Assembly: GCA_000002445.1 (NCBI GenBank)
Contig: CP000066.1
Span: 448,001-512,000, forward strand
Direction: 5' to 3'
Origin: Trypanosoma brucei
Taxonomy: Eukaryota
Length of the DNA: 64,000 bases
The notes under the pieces were generated by a model, which saw nothing but the letters and a program-made list of their open reading frames with translations, ran no database searches and had not been told where the DNA came from. Both the position numbers and the translations under genes were made by a program. Shown piece by piece: positions 35,930-48,337 of the stretch. Within the stretch, counting starts at the first letter, position 1; every line of letters begins with the position of its first letter.

Positions 35930-38245
35930 TTATTTTTTACCCCCGTGCCCTTTTGTGGAACTGTCGCTGCCGGAGTGGTTATTGGCATTAACTGATGAAC
36001 CGCTACCACCAGGCGCACTGCTCCCAGACGAGGCGGAGGAATTTGAAGCTGTTGAGTGCGCACCGGCGTGCTGCGAAGATTGTCCACCGTTTCTTCCACT
36101 GGACGAGCGCTTCTTCAACATGCGCTCCGCCTCACGATCCGCCTTTTGTTTATTCCACGCTTCCTTTTTCTCTCGTAACATTTGCCGCACCCCTCGCCCC
36201 TCCAGCACGCGAGGTGTTGGTGGTGATGGAAAGATAACACTCCGACAGTTGCGGGTGCCACAACTGCATGCAAATGGCGGCATACGTTCGTCACATAACG
36301 TGGCATAATCCACGGTTAACTCCTCACCACTATTAATTGTCCGCTTAGAGACAAGCGTCAGCGTCCGGCCCTGCAAGAAATGCATATTGGGTTCACAAGA
36401 GTGACGAATTGCAACTGCCTGATGAAGGCGATCACCACGTAAAATCACACACCCCACCACTGGATCCTCTTCCCCAAGTTTATATACAGCCTGAGCAATA
36501 ACGGGAACAGTGTGGGCCGCATCACTGAAGAGCGCCTTGCCGGGCCGTACGGTTCGGCTCGCTTTACTCGAAAAATTTCCACGAGAATCGTGACTGATGA
36601 AGTACCATGGCCGCCTTGCCTTCTGCTCACGGACTGCGCGGTTCACTGCATTGTCCACAAAGCGGTCGTGATCCCATGATTTATCGCCCACCACCATCAA
36701 GTCCGCGAAGTCACCGCCATCCTTCTCGCTGTACCACATCCCACAGTTTGGGTTGATTTCCAAAAAGTATACATCACCTTTGGGGTCTATACGAAAGTCA
36801 ACACGGCCATATCCGACCCCGTTCATAATGTGTTGGAAAGCATTCCGGGCCATGTCAATAATCCGTGGGTAGGCCGGGTCATTATGAGGAAGAAAACTGC
36901 ATGCCTCATCGTTGCATTCCATGGACCACTTCTTGTCAAAATAGGCAAAGTCATCTTCATTTTGCAAAAAGTTAAACATTAAAGGCCTGAACACCTTGAC
37001 GCCATGCGGACTCCCGCTGTCGGCACATGCGAGAACGGTGCCCTCACGTCCTCGAATAAACTCCTCCACCAGAGCGTGATTGAACTCTTTCAGAAATGTT
37101 CCAACCTTCACTTTCAACTCGTCCAGAGTGTCACAACGGTTATCCTTGTTAATGCCAACAGAAGCGTAACCGGAAAGATGTTTCACGATGACAGGGAACC
37201 GCAGATGACGACATTTCTTCGCCAAACCTTCCGTTTTATCCAAAAGCACAAAGTTAGGTGTATTCACACCGGCCCCGGCAACAAGCACTTTCATATCAAT
37301 CTTGCTGGGTTCAAAACTGCGCGAGTCTGTGCCCGTAAATGCTGCGTTGTGCTCCTCCAGTGCCTCTAATACGTCGATACCAGCACGCTTCTCATCTTTA
37401 CCACCGTCACAAAGGTTAAAGAAAACGTCGAAGTTGTTTGAGGTTACCAATTCTCGCACCTGACGATAGGCATCATCTTTACGCACAGCAACTTCCGTGA
37501 AGGAGTACCTGTTCTTGTCCTTCCGCACCCTGTGAGCGGGGCTGCAGTGGTAATTGTCCATTTCCGCAGTGACAGAATTGGTCCCTTCGTAGCTGCTGTT
37601 GAGGACACATACGCGCAATTGCTTCTTTACGCTCGCCCTTCTCCTGCCTAGAGTTTGAGATACCACCATCCCAGTCGCCGATTTTGTGCAGTGGGAACCA
37701 TTAGCGGATGAAGAGCCCGTTGACATTGCTGTTGCTGTGTTCGTGGTCGATGCACCGGATCTATTCACCACTGACTTGGAAGAGGAAGCTTTTACTTTCT
37801 TCAGCCCAATCACATCTTCTTTTCCTTTTCTTGCTGACCTTCCCCGATTCGATCCCTGCCCTATTTCCACTGCTGTAGTCATCCCTGAGCTTTTACCTGA
37901 CGCACCACCGCCGTTACTCGTACCTGATGCACTCAACAGGGCTGCACTCTTCGTGCCGGGGTTAATGCCATTACCTCCAGGATGAGCGGATGTACCGACG
38001 GCGGCGGGAGGCACGGCGCCTCCAACTGTCAAACAACTTGAAGTACCACCACTTTTACTGCTCACAGAAGAGGCAGCACCACGGGATGGGAGAATAATAG
38101 TTGTGTTGGATGACTTCCATCGCAGGGTGTGAACAGTCACGCAACTCCACACAGCCACTGTTGGGGTTTTGGGTATTAATACATCTGCAAGGGGACATCG
38201 TAAGACTGAAGCCACACCAAAACGTCGAATTGCTATTCTGTACAT
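35930..38245 (-). CDS. Fusion protein: D-Ala-D-Ala-ligase-like ATP-grasp domain followed by a SET-domain methyltransferase with post-SET Cys cluster, and a Ser/Gly-rich C-tail
   Basis: 771 aa with a verified ATG. The ATP-grasp part reads FPVIVKHLSGYASVGINKDNRCDTLDELKVKV...LVEEFIRGREGTVLAC...GYGRVDFRIDPKGDVYFLEINPNCGM. The SET part reads GCVILRGDRLHQAVAIRHSCEPNMHF...INSGEELTVDYATLCDERMPPFACSCGTRNCRSVI. Confidence 0.85.
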   Translation of the reverse strand: MYRIAIRRFGVASVLRCPLADVLIPKTPTVAVWSCVTVHTLRWKSSNTTIILPSRGAASSVSSKSGGTSSCLTVGGAVPPAAVGTSAHPGGNGINPGTKSAALLSASGTSNGGGASGKSSGMTTAVEIGQGSNRGRSARKGKEDVIGLKKVKASSSKSVVNRSGASTTNTATAMSTGSSSANGSHCTKSATGMVVSQTLGRRRASVKKQLRVCVLNSSYEGTNSVTAEMDNYHCSPAHRVRKDKNRYSFTEVAVRKDDAYRQVRELVTSNNFDVFFNLCDGGKDEKRAGIDVLEALEEHNAAFTGTDSRSFEPSKIDMKVLVAGAGVNTPNFVLLDKTEGLAKKCRHLRFPVIVKHLSGYASVGINKDNRCDTLDELKVKVGTFLKEFNHALVEEFIRGREGTVLACADSGSPHGVKVFRPLMFNFLQNEDDFAYFDKKWSMECNDEACSFLPHNDPAYPRIIDMARNAFQHIMNGVGYGRVDFRIDPKGDVYFLEINPNCGMWYSEKDGGDFADLMVVGDKSWDHDRFVDNAVNRAVREQKARRPWYFISHDSRGNFSSKASRTVRPGKALFSDAAHTVPVIAQAVYKLGEEDPVVGCVILRGDRLHQAVAIRHSCEPNMHFLQGRTLTLVSKRTINSGEELTVDYATLCDERMPPFACSCGTRNCRSVIFPSPPTPRVLEGRGVRQMLREKKEAWNKQKADREAERMLKKRSSSGRNGGQSSQHAGAHSTASNSSASSGSSAPGGSGSSVNANNHSGSDSSTKGHGGKK

Positions 38246-39183: not shown

Positions 39184-40053
39184 TCACAAGTCACCGAAGA
39201 AACTCGCGTCCTCTAAAAGTTTTCCAACGCGCACGTGGCCCATGAGAGGCGGTCCATCAGGGTCTTCCAAAGAAGCTCGATCTCCGCGCATCCATGTGAA
39301 TTTGAGCACCCTTGAAAAGTTTCTCCCCTCCCAGTTCTTGTTATCGAAGTTTTGTTCAGCGATGTAAACAAGTGAGGGCTGTCGACGCTCCTTCTTCAGT
39401 TCGCGAAGTGCCGCCTCTCCACCAGCAGCAGATACGTCATCTTCCACCTTCACAACCACGGCAACGTGACCGCGTGGAAAGTATGCCTTATAGTCCGAGT
39501 CCCATACCACAACATCGCCCACGAGCGGCGTGTGCCGCTTGCGCCTCTTCGTTGTCGTGACTTCCACCTTATTTTCGAAGTTAATCCGCTCGTATAGACG
39601 GTGCATCCCGCTTGAACCAAAAAACTTGAGGTTCTCCCAGTACAAATCGTGTCTGCTTCCACCGAAATAGACGAAAATTCCTCGGGTGTGTAAAAGGTAG
39701 CGAGCAACAAACTCATCCGCGGTCCAACACAACCCAGTTGGTGCTCGCTTCCACTCGGACCCATACGGCATTTTCTTCATCACTTCATGTGGATAACCAA
39801 TTGTAGTGTAGGCGTATGTCTCTGACAGCCAGTGGCGGTGGCAGTTGCTCATAGAAGGGACGTCTGAACTATAACCTACAACAGAGTCCATGGGAGCGTT
39901 GCAATGCTCAAGTGGGTTGAAATCCATATGCATCCCATGTCTCTTTGATTTCTGCGTGGATCCCCCACCGAGGAGAACGTAGACGAATAGAAAAAGCAGG
40001 AGAGTAGCCGGCACAGCGAGCTGAAACTTCTGTTTTCGGTTTAGAGACACCAT
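39184..40053 (-). CDS. Stand-alone CHAP-domain amidase, related to the glutathionylspermidine/trypanothione amidase domain, with an N-terminal signal-anchor
   Basis: The track start is TTG, and the first ATG is at 40051-40053 (MVSLNRKQKFQLAVPATLLLFLFVYVLLGG, hydrophobic). The catalytic region reads GLCWTADEFVARYLLHTRG...GDVVVWDSDYKAYFPRGHVAVVVKVEDD...LVYIAEQNFDNKNWEG. It parallels trypanothione synthetase-amidase YQCVEFARRWLLERKG...[28 protein letters not shown]. Confidence 0.75.
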   Translation of the reverse strand: MVSLNRKQKFQLAVPATLLLFLFVYVLLGGGSTQKSKRHGMHMDFNPLEHCNAPMDSVVGYSSDVPSMSNCHRHWLSETYAYTTIGYPHEVMKKMPYGSEWKRAPTGLCWTADEFVARYLLHTRGIFVYFGGSRHDLYWENLKFFGSSGMHRLYERINFENKVEVTTTKRRKRHTPLVGDVVVWDSDYKAYFPRGHVAVVVKVEDDVSAAGGEAALRELKKERRQPSLVYIAEQNFDNKNWEGRNFSRVLKFTWMRGDRASLEDPDGPPLMGHVRVGKLLEDASFFGDL

Positions 40054-40403
40054 TTGTGGCGTGATTTGTTGATTCGCGTCCTTTACAAAATAATAATAAT
40101 AACAATACCAATGCCAATGCCAATAAGGTTTTATAGCCCTCCCGTGAAAGGATGGAAGAAAGATAGAAAGAAGAGCATTGACAGAAACGTGCCAACAGGA
40201 AAGAACCCGATCATCGGACACACAGAATGTACCGCTGAAGCGATATAGTAGGTAAAAAGTGCGAGACACAAATGGCAAAAAAAATTTTCAAAGTTCGTAT
40301 GATGGGAAAAGGTGTAAAACATGTGAAATCCTCCCCACATTCATCTGATTATTGCGCCGTACATCAGACCAGTAGACTGCCGCCGATTTTCTCCACGCAC
40401 CAA

Positions 40404-42431
40404 TCAGTAGACACAAACACAGTTACATCCCCTGGGGCAACGGTGCACACTCTGGTCATTCCACCACGCCATAATATGCGACATGTGCCCCCCATGACCG
40501 CAGTAAATACAACGCAAAATGAGGCAGCCATTCCTCTTGCTTGAAGGAGGCGGTGTGGCGCCTCCTTCAGCTCCACCACTCCCATGTCCTTGCCCGCCCG
40601 GTAATAGCGAGAGACCACAAATAGCACATGTGTCTGTTGGTAGTAAAGCTGGGCTTAGGTCCTTGTCCTTCGCTCCAACAGTGCCAGGGCCTCCGCTACC
40701 GCTATCACCATACGCATTAATTGGTGAACTCCTGCTGGCCATGTGTAGTTGTTGATTTAGGGTAGCATTACAATAGGCGGTCTCAATAGCGCTCATGACA
40801 AGTTCTACCTCACGGAACTTTACAGGCTGATCCATGATAAAGAATACATGAGAAACAACAGACACACAGCGATAGCACTCTACCGGATGAATCAGATGCT
40901 TTGCAATGTCTGGAAACGCCGGTTCCTCACTTAATATGGAGGGAAGTACAACACAACAGACGACTACACCCGCCCAAAAGGGTTGCCGCTGTGCCTGCAT
41001 CGTCTCCACGGATTGAGCAAGAGCTGGTATGAGGAGTTTTCGAGCACAGAGCAGAGGTGTCTGCACTACCAGCGCTCCCTTCACGATATGGGACAACGTG
41101 CGAAACGTCAGCGATACCCCGCGAAGCGCTTTGGCGTTACGTGTTATATGAGCGTTCTTGCATAAGGCGGAATGGGGTTTATCGTCATACAGGCACACAT
41201 CATTCATCGTATATTTTTTCGTATGCAGTATATTTTCCGGTGCTAATAGTGAAGGAAGTAGCATCCTCCTTTCTTTACTTACCCCCTTTGGCACCACAGA
41301 TAGGTCAAGTGCAGAATTAGTCAAAAAAATCCGCCCCTGGACCGATTGGCTATCGGGTCCGTGCGAAAAAACACCAGCCACACCTGTCAAACCAATCGTG
41401 TTTCCATCGATACCGTCCCCACATTCTGTATTACCACACCCGCGGTTGAAAAGCGGTGAAGACGACGAAAAGCCACCTGAAGACGTCGCATCGGGATGTG
41501 GTCTTCCCTTTGCAAGAGATGCAGATGCAGAGCGATCATCAATTCCTTTTGCTTCCGATCGGTCTGAGCGTCCCCATGAAAGGATTCCGCCGTTCGGCAT
41601 GAATGCGGCGGCAAACTGACGCTTCGGCCTCAGAACCATATTACTCCCCATGAAGTCTTCAAAATGCCCAACAAAATCATCCCGCAGTGACCAACCATTA
41701 CTTTCCTCGTATAATGCCGTCGTGCTTCCCGAGTGCACGCAGTCACGCTCAAGCACTAAGCAACTCTCGTCCAGTTCCAAGGCCCCCCACCAAGTGCAGA
41801 GAAAAGAGAAACCAGACAGAAACAATGACCCAGTCGCCTGCTCAACACCACGTCCCACTGCCCCAGCGTCCATGGATACCTCTGTCGACGAACCCGAGGC
41901 ATCCACAGGCCTCAGTGATGTGAGTCGCGAGCAGCCATACCGCAATTTGCCGTAGTAGTCCGCAGCGTTCTCAACAGTATCATTGCAACCCCCATTGTGT
42001 GACAGTTTTGGCGCAGTGAGTTTCGATATAGCTTCCTCTAAGACAAACGACTGCAACCCACAGCATCTGTTGGCACCACCCCCGCTATCATGCTCGCTGC
42101 CTTGTACGCAACCGTCCTTGGCGTAGCGCCAGCTGCAGGGAGCCGCCGGATACGAAGGTGGGAAAACAGCGACCCACTCCGCTACAACCATGAACCCTGA
42201 AACAGAATTCTTGGGTTCTACAGCCCCTTGGAATTCGCGCTGAAGCCGCACAACCACCATACAAGTCCCGTCTACTTCTGAAACCGGGTCGCACACTATT
42301 ACGGTAGGCGCTCCTCTCCCCGACGGCAGTTTCGCTGGCGTGGCCTGAATACCTACGCACGGTGCGAAGTAAACGCTAGCACGTTTTCTTGCCTCCTCAA
42401 CCTCCGGCGATACAACAACTAAAGGTCCCAT
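40404..42431 (-). CDS. Protein with a GATOR2/SEA-complex-type C-terminal RING-like zinc finger (WDR59/WDR24/MIOS-like)
   Basis: 675 aa with a verified ATG. The C-terminus reads CAICGLSLLPGG...CLILRCIYCGHGGHMSHIMAWWNDQSVHRCPRGCNCVCVY. This matches the signature CxxC...CxxCGHGGHxxHxxxW...CPxGCxC of Sea2/3/4 and WDR24/WDR59/MIOS. Upstream Trp/Gly-containing segments could be degenerate beta-propeller blades. Confidence 0.65.
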   Translation of the reverse strand: MGPLVVVSPEVEEARKRASVYFAPCVGIQATPAKLPSGRGAPTVIVCDPVSEVDGTCMVVVRLQREFQGAVEPKNSVSGFMVVAEWVAVFPPSYPAAPCSWRYAKDGCVQGSEHDSGGGANRCCGLQSFVLEEAISKLTAPKLSHNGGCNDTVENAADYYGKLRYGCSRLTSLRPVDASGSSTEVSMDAGAVGRGVEQATGSLFLSGFSFLCTWWGALELDESCLVLERDCVHSGSTTALYEESNGWSLRDDFVGHFEDFMGSNMVLRPKRQFAAAFMPNGGILSWGRSDRSEAKGIDDRSASASLAKGRPHPDATSSGGFSSSSPLFNRGCGNTECGDGIDGNTIGLTGVAGVFSHGPDSQSVQGRIFLTNSALDLSVVPKGVSKERRMLLPSLLAPENILHTKKYTMNDVCLYDDKPHSALCKNAHITRNAKALRGVSLTFRTLSHIVKGALVVQTPLLCARKLLIPALAQSVETMQAQRQPFWAGVVVCCVVLPSILSEEPAFPDIAKHLIHPVECYRCVSVVSHVFFIMDQPVKFREVELVMSAIETAYCNATLNQQLHMASRSSPINAYGDSGSGGPGTVGAKDKDLSPALLPTDTCAICGLSLLPGGQGHGSGGAEGGATPPPSSKRNGCLILRCIYCGHGGHMSHIMAWWNDQSVHRCPRGCNCVCVY

Positions 42432-42952
42432 GATCCCTCCTATTTCTACTTTTGCGCGGTTTCCTTTCTTTTTTCAAGCCCTGATGTAAAGGCTCTACCG
42501 TGTGGCAGTTCCCTCTCCCTCCGCTACAATGGTTTTCCCTTGTGCTCGCGCGTGCGCACCAAAACTTATAATGGGGCTCTTGCGTGAATTCAGGTGCAGT
42601 TCTTAACACAAGGGGGGAAACAATAATAAAACTAGAGGTTTCTGTCATAGTAGTACAGCCCGCAAGTAAACATGCAGTTGACGAACGACAACCTACCTCC
42701 AGCAGCATAATAAAGAAGTAAATGCGGATGCAAGAATATAATGATGTACGAACGTAATGCGGAAGTTACCTAAACGCCAAATCACAAGGAGGAGAACTTC
42801 ATATGTGCAGAAAGACCCACCCAACCCTCATTAATTCAATACCTCTACATATATTACCTTATCCTGCACCATATTGCTGCAGTCATAATACTTCCACCAT
42901 TCCTCCATATATATGAATAGACATACAGGTACGCGTGCAGACGAGTATACCA

Positions 42953-43807
42953 CTAGAATTCTTCCATTTGTGGCTCAGGACCATATGACAGTTTCTCTCC
43001 AAACACAGATTTTAGGCGCCACTCGTCTCGCACCTGGTCATCAACCTTTGGTTCCACGAACTTCCGGAAAAACCAGGCACGGCGAACGGACACTTGCTTC
43101 CAGTAGTTGTGCAGTCGTGCTTGCGCTTTGCAGTAAAACTTCACAACTGACTCCTCCAACACCTGAGCCATCGCGGGACCGGCGGAAGAATAATACATCT
43201 CTTCTGCCTCCAGAGCCGTAACAGGTTGCCCCTCCCGCTTGCGACGCGTGACCTCCCGCTCAACACCGGAGTACAACTCCTCCCGGAACTCGGCGGGAGG
43301 CTTAAATTCCAAATCCGTCCAATGACCCCCACTAAAGCCTTTAACCTGAGGGTAGCGGACAAGATTCCTGGTAAGTTGGGGTGTGGCATCCTTACTCACT
43401 TCGTAGAACTTAAGATTCGGATAGCGGTCAGCGCTCTGGTGGCAAAGAAATTCAAACGTTTTGTCGAGTGCATTACACGCTGTGCAGTTCTCCTGATGAT
43501 ACCGCACAACCATAACGTCATCCGAGTGAGAAAAGTAGTGCAACTTCTCCCGCATCTCCTCTACCGAATGAATTGGCTTCACACACCTGGTTGGAAATTT
43601 CATCCAAATTGGATTCACTGGCAACTCGTTGTTTGCGCCCAAACCGCTACGGATACCTGCGCTGTTCATCATCAGTGCCTTCATTTTGTGCGAAGCCGAT
43701 TGGTAAAGCTCGAGCTTCTCCCGCCGTCGCTTGATCCCAGCAACGACTTCAGACCGGCCGCCCGGTACCTCCGGCTCGCTCCATTCTTCTTTTCGGGTTT
43801 CGGCCAT
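42953..43807 (-). CDS. Thioredoxin-fold protein with atypical CTAC active-site motif
   Basis: 284 aa with a verified ATG. The motif is VVRYHQENCTACNALDKTFEFLCHQSADRYPNLKFYEV, laid out like thioredoxin WCGPCK...F.KVD. N- and C-terminal extensions are present. Confidence 0.6.
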   Translation of the reverse strand: MAETRKEEWSEPEVPGGRSEVVAGIKRRREKLELYQSASHKMKALMMNSAGIRSGLGANNELPVNPIWMKFPTRCVKPIHSVEEMREKLHYFSHSDDVMVVRYHQENCTACNALDKTFEFLCHQSADRYPNLKFYEVSKDATPQLTRNLVRYPQVKGFSGGHWTDLEFKPPAEFREELYSGVEREVTRRKREGQPVTALEAEEMYYSSAGPAMAQVLEESVVKFYCKAQARLHNYWKQVSVRRAWFFRKFVEPKVDDQVRDEWRLKSVFGEKLSYGPEPQMEEF

Positions 43808-45733: not shown

Positions 45734-48337
45734 TTATGCTTCATCTTCTATCTCATCTTCACCTGTGCCAGACGCACGGGCAACATCATTCCCACTAAGT
45801 TCTTCGCTCCCAATAGAGGAAGATGATGAAGAAGCGTTCTTTCGACCTTTGGATACGCTAGAGCTTGACCGAGACGTCCTTTTACTGCTCGATTCTTTGG
45901 ACGATGCACCATCCGCTGAGTCCTTCGCCGCGTCGGCACCGGACGCCTCATCCACAGCCTCGCTCTTTACCGCATCAGAATCTAGCTCATCTACATCCTG
46001 ATCGTTAACATGTTCGTCCTCTACAACCTGTTGCACAGCCTCACCCTTTTCAGATGATGGCGATCTCTCCAGTTCGTCGCCGTACTCGAACTTATCCCCC
46101 TCCAGTTTAGCGGATGATTCGGATTTCTTCGATGATGAGCGGGACTGCTCCGACTCGGTATCTTTCTTTTCAGATGTCTGGGACTTGTCAAGCTCCTCAG
46201 TGTATTCATCCTTCTGTTCATCATCCTCAGGCTTCTTCGATGATGAGCGGGACCGCTCCGACTCGGTATCTTTCTGATCCTCAGCCTCGGTATCTTTCTT
46301 TTCAGATGTCTGGGACTTGTCAAGCTCCTCAGTGTATTCATCCTTCTGTTCATCATCCTCAGGCTTCTTCGATGATGAGCGGGACCGCTCCGACTCGGTA
46401 TCTTTCTGATCCTCAGCCTCGGTATCTTTCTTTTCAGATGTCTGGGACTTGTCAAGCTCCTCAGTGTATTCATCCTTCTGTTCATCATCCTCAGGCTTCT
46501 TCGATGATGAGCGGGACTGCTCCGACTCGGTATCTTTCTTTTCAGATGTCTGGGACTTGTCAAGCTCCTCAGTGTATTCATCCTTCTGTTCATCATCCTC
46601 AGGCTTCTTCGATGATGAGCGGGACCGCTCCGACTCGGTATCTTTCTGATCCTCAGCCTCGGTATCTTTCTTTTCAGATGTCTGGGACTTGTCAAGCTCC
46701 TCAGTGTATTCATCCTTCTGTTCATCATCCTCAGGCTTCTTCGATGATGAGCGGGACCGCTCCGACTCGGTATCTTTCTGATCCTCAGCCTCGGTATCTT
46801 TCTTTTCAGATGTCTGGGACTTGTCAAGCTCCTCAGTGTATTCATCCTTCTGTTCATCATCCTCAGGCTTCTTCGATGATGAGCGGGACCGCTCCGACTC
46901 GGTATCTTTCTGATCCTCAGTGTCAGGATCCTTCTTTCCGGACTCGGAGGCTTCAAATTCGTCACCATAATCATTCTTGGTTGTATCAGCAGTTGGTTCA
47001 TCATCCGTCTTGTCTGCATCATCCTTCGTCAGTTCCTCAGGCTTCTTCGATGATGAGCGGGACCGCTCCGACTCGGTATCTTTCTGATCCTCAGTGTCAG
47101 GATCCTTCTTTCCGGACTCGGAGGCTTCAAATTCGTCACCATAATCATTCTTGGTTGTATCAGCAGTCGGTTCATCATCCGTCTTCTCTCGTCCTTCCCT
47201 GCCGGATCTCTCAGACTTCCTTGACGATGGTCGAGAACGGTCAGATTGAGTGTCCTTCCCATCTTCAGCATCGGTGGTGTCCTGTTGCATCGCTTTTTGA
47301 CTGGCGCTTGCAGATGCAGAGGACGGGCGAGCAGCAGATGCAGGACGGCTATTGCCACCATCCTTCAAAATTTCCTTGCTCGTCGACTGCTCTGTCGAGG
47401 CTGGTTGCGGAGATGCTGTAGAAGGTCTGCTTTCCCTCTTAGCTTCGCTGGGTTGCGCCACACTTGATGTAGAACCCTTCCCAGTTGCAGAGTCTTCCGC
47501 GACTGATGATGAAATTGGGGCCTCGTCTTCGGTCACAGCACCGTGCTTACTGCTTTCAGTTAACCCTCCACCGGACTTCCGGCCGCCAACGGGAGAAGCG
47601 GCTCCTTTGCCCTTCTGTGGTGTGGCGGGTCGGGAAGAGTCCGAATTTAGAGTTTCTCTAATGGTCTTGAGTAATATATTCTTGGGAGGGGACGAAGTTT
47701 TGCCCTTTCCCTGACTGCTGCAGGCACCCGGTCGGCCACCTCGTTGGCCCACTGTATCAGGACGCTTTTGTTTGGGTGGCTTAGGAACTGTCGCCACGGC
47801 GCGTTTCTTGGATCCAGTAGCTCTACTCGACACAGTACGTTGACGCTTCTTCGCAACTTCTTTTCTACCCGATGTAGTCTCTTTCGGGCTGGTCAACTCC
47901 TCGGCCTCAACACGCCTCTGCGTAGCGAATCCCGTCCGGCATGCGAGTTCCTCCAACTCCCTCTGGCGCCGTTCCTCAAATCGCCGGCGAGCCACTTCAC
48001 GCCGATGTTGCTCCAACCGCTTCTGCCGCCTCATCTCTTCCCGGCGCTCGGCCGTTTCACGGATCAACATCTCCCTTCGGGCCCAGTAAGGTGCAAGGTA
48101 TGGATCTTCCAAATCGTTATACGGAGGAAGACTTTGGTCTTGTAGTGGCCCAAGTGTGAATTCTGTTTCTAGGAAGCGCTGAGCGGACTGTGGGCGTAGA
48201 TTACTGTTTACTGTAGATCTTGGTGTAACAACACACAAAGCATTGGTAGCAGCCGGACCATGTGACGCGTAGACGCCCACTCGAGCTGCCTCACCGCCGC
48301 GAGATGAACTCTCCAGTGGGGGGAGCGACTTCGACAT
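45734..48337 (-). CDS. Highly acidic Ser/Lys/Glu/Asp-rich tandem-repeat protein (867 aa) with an Arg-rich coiled-coil N-terminus
   Basis: Verified ATG (atgtcgaagtcgctcccc). The N-terminus reads RREMLIRETAERREEMRRQKRLEQHRREVARRRFEERRQRELEEL. It is followed by at least 8 near-identical 44- or 36-aa units SE(R/Q)SRSSSKKPEDDEQKDEYTEELDKSQTSEKKDTE(AEDQKDTE). Two longer 62-aa units precede them. Confidence 0.85.
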   Translation of the reverse strand: MSKSLPPLESSSRGGEAARVGVYASHGPAATNALCVVTPRSTVNSNLRPQSAQRFLETEFTLGPLQDQSLPPYNDLEDPYLAPYWARREMLIRETAERREEMRRQKRLEQHRREVARRRFEERRQRELEELACRTGFATQRRVEAEELTSPKETTSGRKEVAKKRQRTVSSRATGSKKRAVATVPKPPKQKRPDTVGQRGGRPGACSSQGKGKTSSPPKNILLKTIRETLNSDSSRPATPQKGKGAASPVGGRKSGGGLTESSKHGAVTEDEAPISSSVAEDSATGKGSTSSVAQPSEAKRESRPSTASPQPASTEQSTSKEILKDGGNSRPASAARPSSASASASQKAMQQDTTDAEDGKDTQSDRSRPSSRKSERSGREGREKTDDEPTADTTKNDYGDEFEASESGKKDPDTEDQKDTESERSRSSSKKPEELTKDDADKTDDEPTADTTKNDYGDEFEASESGKKDPDTEDQKDTESERSRSSSKKPEDDEQKDEYTEELDKSQTSEKKDTEAEDQKDTESERSRSSSKKPEDDEQKDEYTEELDKSQTSEKKDTEAEDQKDTESERSRSSSKKPEDDEQKDEYTEELDKSQTSEKKDTESEQSRSSSKKPEDDEQKDEYTEELDKSQTSEKKDTEAEDQKDTESERSRSSSKKPEDDEQKDEYTEELDKSQTSEKKDTEAEDQKDTESERSRSSSKKPEDDEQKDEYTEELDKSQTSEKKDTESEQSRSSSKKSESSAKLEGDKFEYGDELERSPSSEKGEAVQQVVEDEHVNDQDVDELDSDAVKSEAVDEASGADAAKDSADGASSKESSSKRTSRSSSSVSKGRKNASSSSSSIGSEELSGNDVARASGTGEDEIEDEA
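46100..47130. repeat. Coding tandem-repeat array: 8 copies of a 132-nt unit, or 108-nt where a 24-nt segment is missing, inside the acidic-repeat gene
   Basis: The marker 'gatgatgagcggga' recurs at about 46131, 46239, 46371, 46503, 46611, 46743, 46875 and 47049. The spacings are 108, 132, 132, 108, 132, 132 and 174 nt. The copies are nearly identical apart from C/T differences (gggaccgc versus gggactgc). Confidence 0.9.

Follow-up and report, generated by a model that had tools for sequence, protein, structure and literature searches.

A probable Sea3/WDR59 counterpart lacking the WD40 propeller in Trypanosoma brucei

In yeast, the scaffolds Sea2, Sea3 and Sea4 of the SEACAT subcomplex all have a propeller, a domain-invasion motif, a solenoid and a RING, and an RWD domain has been described in Sea3 only, between the propeller and a flexible linker (PMC9646525). 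The propeller and RWD of Sea3 are the part that binds and stabilises SEACIT, and the rest of the protein, with Sec13 attached, belongs to the SEACAT core (PMC9646525). In human GATOR2, WDR59 likewise combines an RWD with a propeller at its N-terminus and provides SEC13 with a blade (PMC12507694). Here we analyse a gene of Trypanosoma brucei located at positions 40404-42431 of a 64,000-nucleotide stretch of contig CP000066.1 (448,001 to 512,000; from here on, the window), whose C-terminus had been likened to the zinc finger of these scaffolds in a preliminary description of the sequence. We conclude that the gene is probably the kinetoplastid counterpart of Sea3 (yeast) and WDR59 (human), one of the three large scaffolds of SEACAT/GATOR2, with the N-terminal WD40 propeller lost, as judged by comparison with the yeast and human subunits.

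The SEA/GATOR machinery has been surveyed in this lineage. Sea2, Sea3 and Sea4 are annotated across Euglenozoa, including kinetoplastids, and in the diplonemid Paradiplonema Sea3 (DIPPA_06252) and Sea4 co-purify, along with Sec16, with Sec13b (Faktorova et al. 2023, PMC10264103). In Leishmania, homologues of WDR59, WDR24, MIOS, Sec13, Sestrin, RagA and RagC have been listed (Lypaczewski et al. 2021, PMC7901767), the best BLASTP matches in L. donovani being LdCL_300009300 for WDR59, LdCL_200015700 for WDR24 and LdCL_250018400 for MIOS, the last over 82 aligned residues; Sestrin, RagC and an essential RagA are present, and NPRL2/NPRL3, Ragulator, KICSTOR and CASTOR are absent (PMC7901767). These published kinetoplastid entries were annotated as SEA/GATOR2 components by reciprocal or one-way BLAST, and neither study gives the domain architecture or mentions a missing propeller. 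The kinetoplastid 'Sea3' of the first study and the Leishmania GATOR2 homologues of the second are almost certainly the gene family described here, an identity that we infer, and the Leishmania family member (LPMP_251880, chromosome 25) is probably the "MIOS" match of Lypaczewski et al. 2021. The existence of SEA/GATOR subunits in kinetoplastids is already published and the gain in this respect is incremental; the structure-based paralogue call and the loss of the propeller appear, as far as we have searched, to be additions to the literature.

The C-terminal zinc finger

The open reading frame at 40404-42431 (2,028 nt) is real and lies on the minus strand, as do all features of the gene given below. 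It encodes 675 residues plus a stop codon (40404-40406), the plus-strand frame across the same interval being riddled with stops, and its product is identical to T. brucei brucei TREU927 XP_843782.1 / UniProt Q57ZC3, labelled "hypothetical protein, conserved" in databases. The protein ends in C602-A-I-C605 ... C636-LILR-C641-IY-C644-GHGGH-MS-H652-IMAWWNDQSVHR-C665-PRG-C669-N-C671-V-C673-VY, and hence carries the full signature of GATOR2/SEACAT scaffolds, C-x2-C ... C-x2-C-G-H-G-G-H-x2-H ... C-P-x-G-C-x-C-x-C. The preliminary description had quoted this sequence exactly and underestimated its length at about 65 residues: the finger takes up the final 74 residues from C602 (CAICG...GCLILRCIYCGHGGHMSHIMAWWNDQSVHRCPRGCNCVCVY). 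Its first zinc knuckle, C602-x2-C605 (residues 600-607; 40611-40634), is followed by the RING core, GCLILRC-IY-CGHGGH-MS-H-IMAWW...CPRGCNCVCVY (residues 634-675; 40407-40532), and the 11 Cys/His ligands of the two elements (C602 and C605; C641, C644, H646, H649, H652, C665, C669, C671 and C673) are invariant in 13 of 13 aligned orthologues. By position, C602/C605 probably corresponds to the pair C914/C917 of the WDR59 zinc finger, and the C914A/C917A change in WDR59 weakens GATOR1-KICSTOR binding (PMC12507694).

Similarity searches consistently pointed to the same family. A phmmer search with the single sequence against 177,635 PDB sequences gave WDR59 first (E=2e-4), then WDR24, Rtc1/Sea2 and MIOS. 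With a 13-sequence family profile the matches were WDR59 (2.9e-7), MIOS (4.5e-5), Sea4 (8e-4) and Sea2 (0.013), and nothing other than GATOR2/SEACAT was retrieved from the PDB at E<=1. Some hits from PDB entries 9dx0, 9dx1 and 9dx2 bear molecule names that can lead automated annotation astray, since these chains are engineered single-chain fusions: matches named 'Protein SEC13 homolog', 'Nucleoporin SEH1' or 'WDR24' align through the C-termini of WDR59 or WDR24, CLTCGHGGHTSHMMEWF being the C-terminus of WDR59. In Pfam, the T. brucei protein matched the GATOR2-finger models PF17034 and PF17120 and no others.

Could this resemblance be fortuitous, or the finger belong to an unrelated family? The T. 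brucei sequence itself falls under the curated Pfam thresholds (19.6 bits for PF17034, with a cut-off of 27, and 13.8 bits for PF17120, with a cut-off of 27.4), as such an explanation would have it. Against this, all profile targets, with E-values as low as 3e-7, belong to GATOR2/SEACAT, Sea3/WDR59 is found again by the independent route of fold searches, and family members do clear the Pfam threshold, such as the slower-evolving relative P0035 (35.8 bits for PF17120 vs the cut-off of 27.4). A chance or unrelated finger is thus effectively refuted by the profile and fold searches, and we find it scarcely tenable. As judged from sequence, the match is far beyond chance, and membership of the GATOR2/SEACAT finger family is highly probable. 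The proposal that the protein is a divergent GATOR2-like subunit, and that part of the SEA/GATOR module has been retained in trypanosomes, is borne out in that every significant match by sequence, profile or fold is a GATOR2/SEACAT subunit; neither an absence of such matches nor an assignment to another zinc-finger family, the outcomes that would have spoken against it, was seen in any of the three kinds of search.

Domain order and paralogue assignment

The AlphaFold2 model, built on a 13-sequence alignment, has a mean per-residue confidence (pLDDT) of 61.5, with confident islands at residues 1-140, in a helix at 203-217, in a helical domain at 396-566 (pLDDT 80-94) and in the finger. According to this model the layout is, from N- to C-terminus, an RWD-like domain, a linker, a helical domain and the finger. 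The N-terminal alpha/beta domain (residues 1-140; 42012-42431) contains a helix at 3-22, five strands and a helix at 128-139, and bears the invariant motif F90...Y94-P95-x3-C99-x-W101; its RWD/UBC-like fold is moderately supported. The alpha-helical, solenoid-like domain (residues 391-566; 40734-41261) includes an invariant 'PFWAGVxxCC' helix and is placed directly N-terminal to the finger, as is the alpha-solenoid of GATOR2/SEACAT scaffolds.

The N-terminal WD40 beta-propeller of these scaffolds is, however, missing. The T. brucei protein has no Pfam WD40 match even at E<=10 and no propeller in the AlphaFold2 model, and across 31 relatives (see below) there are zero WD40 matches at the same permissive threshold. 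That the first 550 or so residues are not WD40, as noticed initially, therefore holds, while the structure prediction suggested at that point, in search of a propeller and a RING-like finger, returned the finger alone. The protein is homologous to GATOR2/SEACAT scaffolds, yet non-canonical by architecture, because the propeller is absent here and in all 31 relatives. A longer N-terminus is impossible, since there is an in-frame stop 15 codons 5' of the ATG and a gap of 521 bp (42432-42952), without coding capacity for a propeller, up to the next same-strand gene (42953-43807). We likewise rejected a split gene, in which an adjacent frame would encode the propeller, given the size of this spacer and the lack of WD40 matches in the scanned same-strand neighbours.

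RWD, linker, helical domain and finger follow each other in the order of Sea3/WDR59 minus the propeller, and it is on this basis that we assign the gene to this paralogue: an RWD-like domain precedes the linker and helical domain, and Sea3/WDR59 is the nearest of the three paralogues in both sequence and structure. In fold searches, the helical domain and finger were closest, among solved chains, to Sea3 and WDR59. With the Leishmania family protein as a phmmer query against the PDB, the sole GATOR2 match was WDR59. Compared to Sea3/Mtc5 (PDB 8ADL chain C) and WDR59 (PDB 7UHY chain D), the trypanosome protein lacks the N-terminal WD40 beta-propeller and is much shorter (675 residues vs 1148 and 974, respectively), its RWD is recognisable by fold only, with YP-x3-C in place of YP-x3-P, and it is interrupted by long stretches of low complexity; no conservation of the blade given to Sec13 can be demonstrated.

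The other two paralogues have to be weighed here, for MIOS/Sea4 and WDR24/Sea2 share with the trypanosome protein a homologous finger (PF17034 / PF17120) and a preceding helical domain. The gene could be a Sea4/MIOS orthologue that has lost its propeller, as suggested by one-directional BLAST and by the automatic UniProt name 'mio zinc-ribbon'. The MIOS-type PF17034 is indeed the top Pfam match of the T. brucei and Leishmaniinae proteins; the alignment of the family profile to MIOS and Sea4 runs over some 120 positions (profile positions 521/523-640), the first CxxC included; and the best BLASTP match of human MIOS in L. donovani is on chromosome 25, like the L. panamensis family member LPMP_251880. 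In our view the MIOS label is an artefact of searching one way, with the finger alone, and the orthology it implies is improbable: MIOS/Sea4 ranks lower than Sea3/WDR59 by fold and, in the case of MIOS, by sequence. As for an orthologue of Sea2/WDR24 without propeller, phmmer with P0035 retrieved WDR24, WDR59 and Sea2 with E-values no worse than about 1e-3 and MIOS only at 0.36, yet Sea2/WDR24 too ranks lower by fold, and we give this option little credence. No RWD has been described in either pair of proteins, and their N-terminal propellers bind CASTOR1 or Sestrin2.

Besides the points in favour of MIOS, a few results weigh against the assignment to Sea3/WDR59. Searched against PDB and Pfam, the profile of the N-terminal domain family found no match by sequence; hhalign did set FPPSYP on the FPINYP of the RWD region of a canonical WDR59-like protein (L019, see below), weakly (E=0.04, probability 1%). 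The hairpin motif presented in the next paragraph does not significantly resemble the corresponding region in canonical references, as measured by a motif hidden Markov model against shuffles. Finally, in published trees the kinetoplastid Sea2 and Sea3 fall outside all clades (Faktorova et al. 2023, PMC10264103).

Between the two folded domains there are several smaller elements. An amphipathic helix, 'FLxxWWxALELD' (residues 200-230; 41742-41834), modelled at 203-217 with a pLDDT of about 84, is conserved in the family, with collinear landmarks in more than 20 relatives. The motif RPKRQFAAAFMPNGGILSWG (residues 268-290; 41562-41630), a predicted beta-hairpin with strands at 273-277 and 283-288 and low model confidence, is the best-conserved stretch between the N-terminal and helical domains (majority fraction 0.54, occupancy 0.95). 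It is followed by a low-complexity, disordered insert of variable length (residues 291-363; 41343-41561; pLDDT 30-40, conservation 0.24) and by a short strand, 'GRIFLTNS' (residues 364-372; 41316-41342; occupancy 0.92), modelled at 366-370. The hairpin is a candidate for the first two strands, and the short strand for the third, of a blade donated to Sec13, i.e. of a domain-invasion motif; the placement of the hairpin fits the domain order of Sea3/WDR59. A proposed equivalence of RxFAAxFLPxGGVxxWG with 'PRSSGARFCGDGNLVCFG' / 'PRYAGATFGRDGTLVVWS' of canonical WDR59-like references was dropped, the motif model scoring no higher than shuffled controls.

Relatives and genomic neighbourhood

A word-indexed homologue search with the full protein yielded a T. 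b. gambiense cluster only, and an exhaustive HMMER search was needed to obtain the 31 relatives, which include T. congolense, T. vivax, T. grayi, Phytomonas, Leishmania, Lotmaria and Novymonas. Their lengths vary widely, from 617-740 residues in Trypanosoma and Phytomonas to 970-1170 in Leishmaniinae and 1539-2006 in three others, yet six sequence landmarks are collinear across the family and the surplus length is low-complexity sequence; the insert at residues 291-363, for instance, is hugely enlarged in Leishmaniinae and in P0028, P0029 and P0033. Retention of a propeller in the relatives of 1539-2006 residues was considered and rejected: the surplus lies within and after the RWD, whose first helix begins at residues 44-105. 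P0028, P0029 (L001 1654-6273) and P0033, from Logan runs SRR35237954 and SRR29272243, carry hundreds of Ser-, Gly-, Lys/Arg- and Glu-rich residues inside the RWD-like domain and linker with the landmark order kept, an extreme tolerance of inserts in a folded domain. At the other end is P0035 (L003 3001-4512, on environmental contig ERZ27280287), a compact member of 503 residues with the same layout; it is the least diverged of the family, lies 33 bp from its upstream gene, and may be the one best suited as a modelling template.

Profile searches beyond this set were of limited yield. A 42-residue RING-core profile gave 4 candidates, while one of the C-terminal half returned nothing, its candidate pool being swamped by low-complexity words, and the metagenome scan found generic GATOR2 fingers only and no deeper family members. 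A useful outgroup reference is L019 (40-3030), an intronless canonical WDR59-like gene of 997 residues on a JGI metagenome contig, with WD40, the RWD signature FPINYP and zf-RING_16.

The T. brucei gene belongs to a run of same-strand genes. Downstream, at 35930-38245 (minus strand), a 771-residue protein fuses an ATP-grasp domain (D-Ala-D-Ala-ligase C-terminal type) to a SET methyltransferase domain. The same unusual fusion lies downstream of the relative P0029 on a distant kinetoplastid contig (L001 6913-9273), so that P0029 is a positional orthologue, with conservation of the gene and of its location alike. The immediate downstream neighbour (39184-40278, minus strand) has a CHAP (amidase/peptidase) domain (Pfam 28.8 bits); its reading frame as listed begins with TTG, and the true start is probably an internal ATG. 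The upstream same-strand frames at 42953-43807 (284 residues) and 45734-48337 (867 residues) have no Pfam match at E<=1e-3, the former containing a C-x2-C motif (NCTACNALD) of thioredoxin-like appearance to the eye. Frames of 101-153 residues at 41158-41619 and 41650-41955 (both plus strand) and at 42397-42708 (minus strand), antisense to the gene or overlapping its start, are in all likelihood not coding, but by-products of the long opposite-strand frame.

Possible role in the SEA/GATOR pathway

By analogy with the yeast SEA complex and human GATOR2, the C-terminal finger would heterodimerise with a Sea4/MIOS-like finger to form a cage junction. The hairpin at 268-290 and the strand at 364-372 would complete a Sec13 propeller by adding its seventh blade, probably in the euglenozoan-specific paralogue TbSec13.2 (Tb927.11.8120), and the helical domain would pack on a Sea2/WDR24-like subunit. 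The RWD-like head, on its long flexible tether, may contact whatever stands in for SEACIT/GATOR1, and the output of the complex would go to RagA/RagC and TOR. The propellers of GATOR2 are reported to engage sensors and GATOR1, and their removal causes a substantial loss of mTORC1 capacity (PMC10938194). Since the propeller and RWD of Sea3 hold SEACIT, and GATOR2 propellers are reported to engage GATOR1, the absence of the propeller predicts a weakened or rewired GATOR1 link, in keeping with the BLAST searches of Leishmania that found no NPRL2/NPRL3.

Other arrangements can be conceived for a protein of this build. It might derive from GATOR2 and act outside the nutrient-sensing cage, as a free-standing RWD-RING protein, e.g. 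in a ubiquitin-ligase-like capacity or, at endoplasmic reticulum exit sites, in partnership with Sec13.2/Sec16. The ubiquitin ligases RNF25 and listerin, both among the fold matches, join a zinc finger to an RWD-type domain in a single chain (in listerin, at the C-terminus); TbSec13.2 is found at these exit sites, with no lysosomal signal or SEA-like localisation seen (Sharif et al. 2025); in Paradiplonema, Sec16 came down with Sec13b alongside Sea3 and Sea4; and the Leishmania absences listed above (NPRL2/3, Ragulator, KICSTOR, CASTOR) go in the same direction. Nevertheless, the RINGs of RNF25 and listerin are canonical E2-binding ones and not of the GATOR2 CGHGGH type, and these ligases lack a Sea3-like helical domain in the same arrangement as well as any sequence similarity to the trypanosome protein. 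The finger of the latter is specifically GATOR2-type with all ligands kept, a structural dimerisation module in solved complexes; the lineage retains two more GATOR2-like finger proteins along with Sestrin and RagA/RagC; and there is no positive sign of E3 activity. We consider a free-standing role quite improbable. A related scenario, also unlikely in our opinion, is a stripped-down kinetoplastid SEA/GATOR in which Sea3 shed its propeller as NPRL2/NPRL3 were lost or diverged extremely, and RWD-solenoid-RING plus Sec13.2 would act elsewhere or otherwise (with Sec16 at the exit sites, or in a ubiquitin-ligase-like manner) and not as a lysosomal brake-release on the Rag GTPase-activating protein.

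The pathway by which trypanosomatids sense amino acids upstream of TOR is relevant to virulence: Leishmania cannot do without RagA, and requires RagC to survive in the liver. Assigning a "hypothetical protein" gene to Sea3/WDR59 gives tagging and pull-down work a definite starting point. Of greater interest than the presence of the subunit is the lack of its propeller. Human GATOR2 propellers are reported to be necessary for engaging GATOR1 and sensors and for full mTORC1 activation (PMC10938194), and a natural, lineage-wide deletion of the propeller would be a ready-made test of what it is for, hinting at a rewired link to GATOR1 in kinetoplastids.
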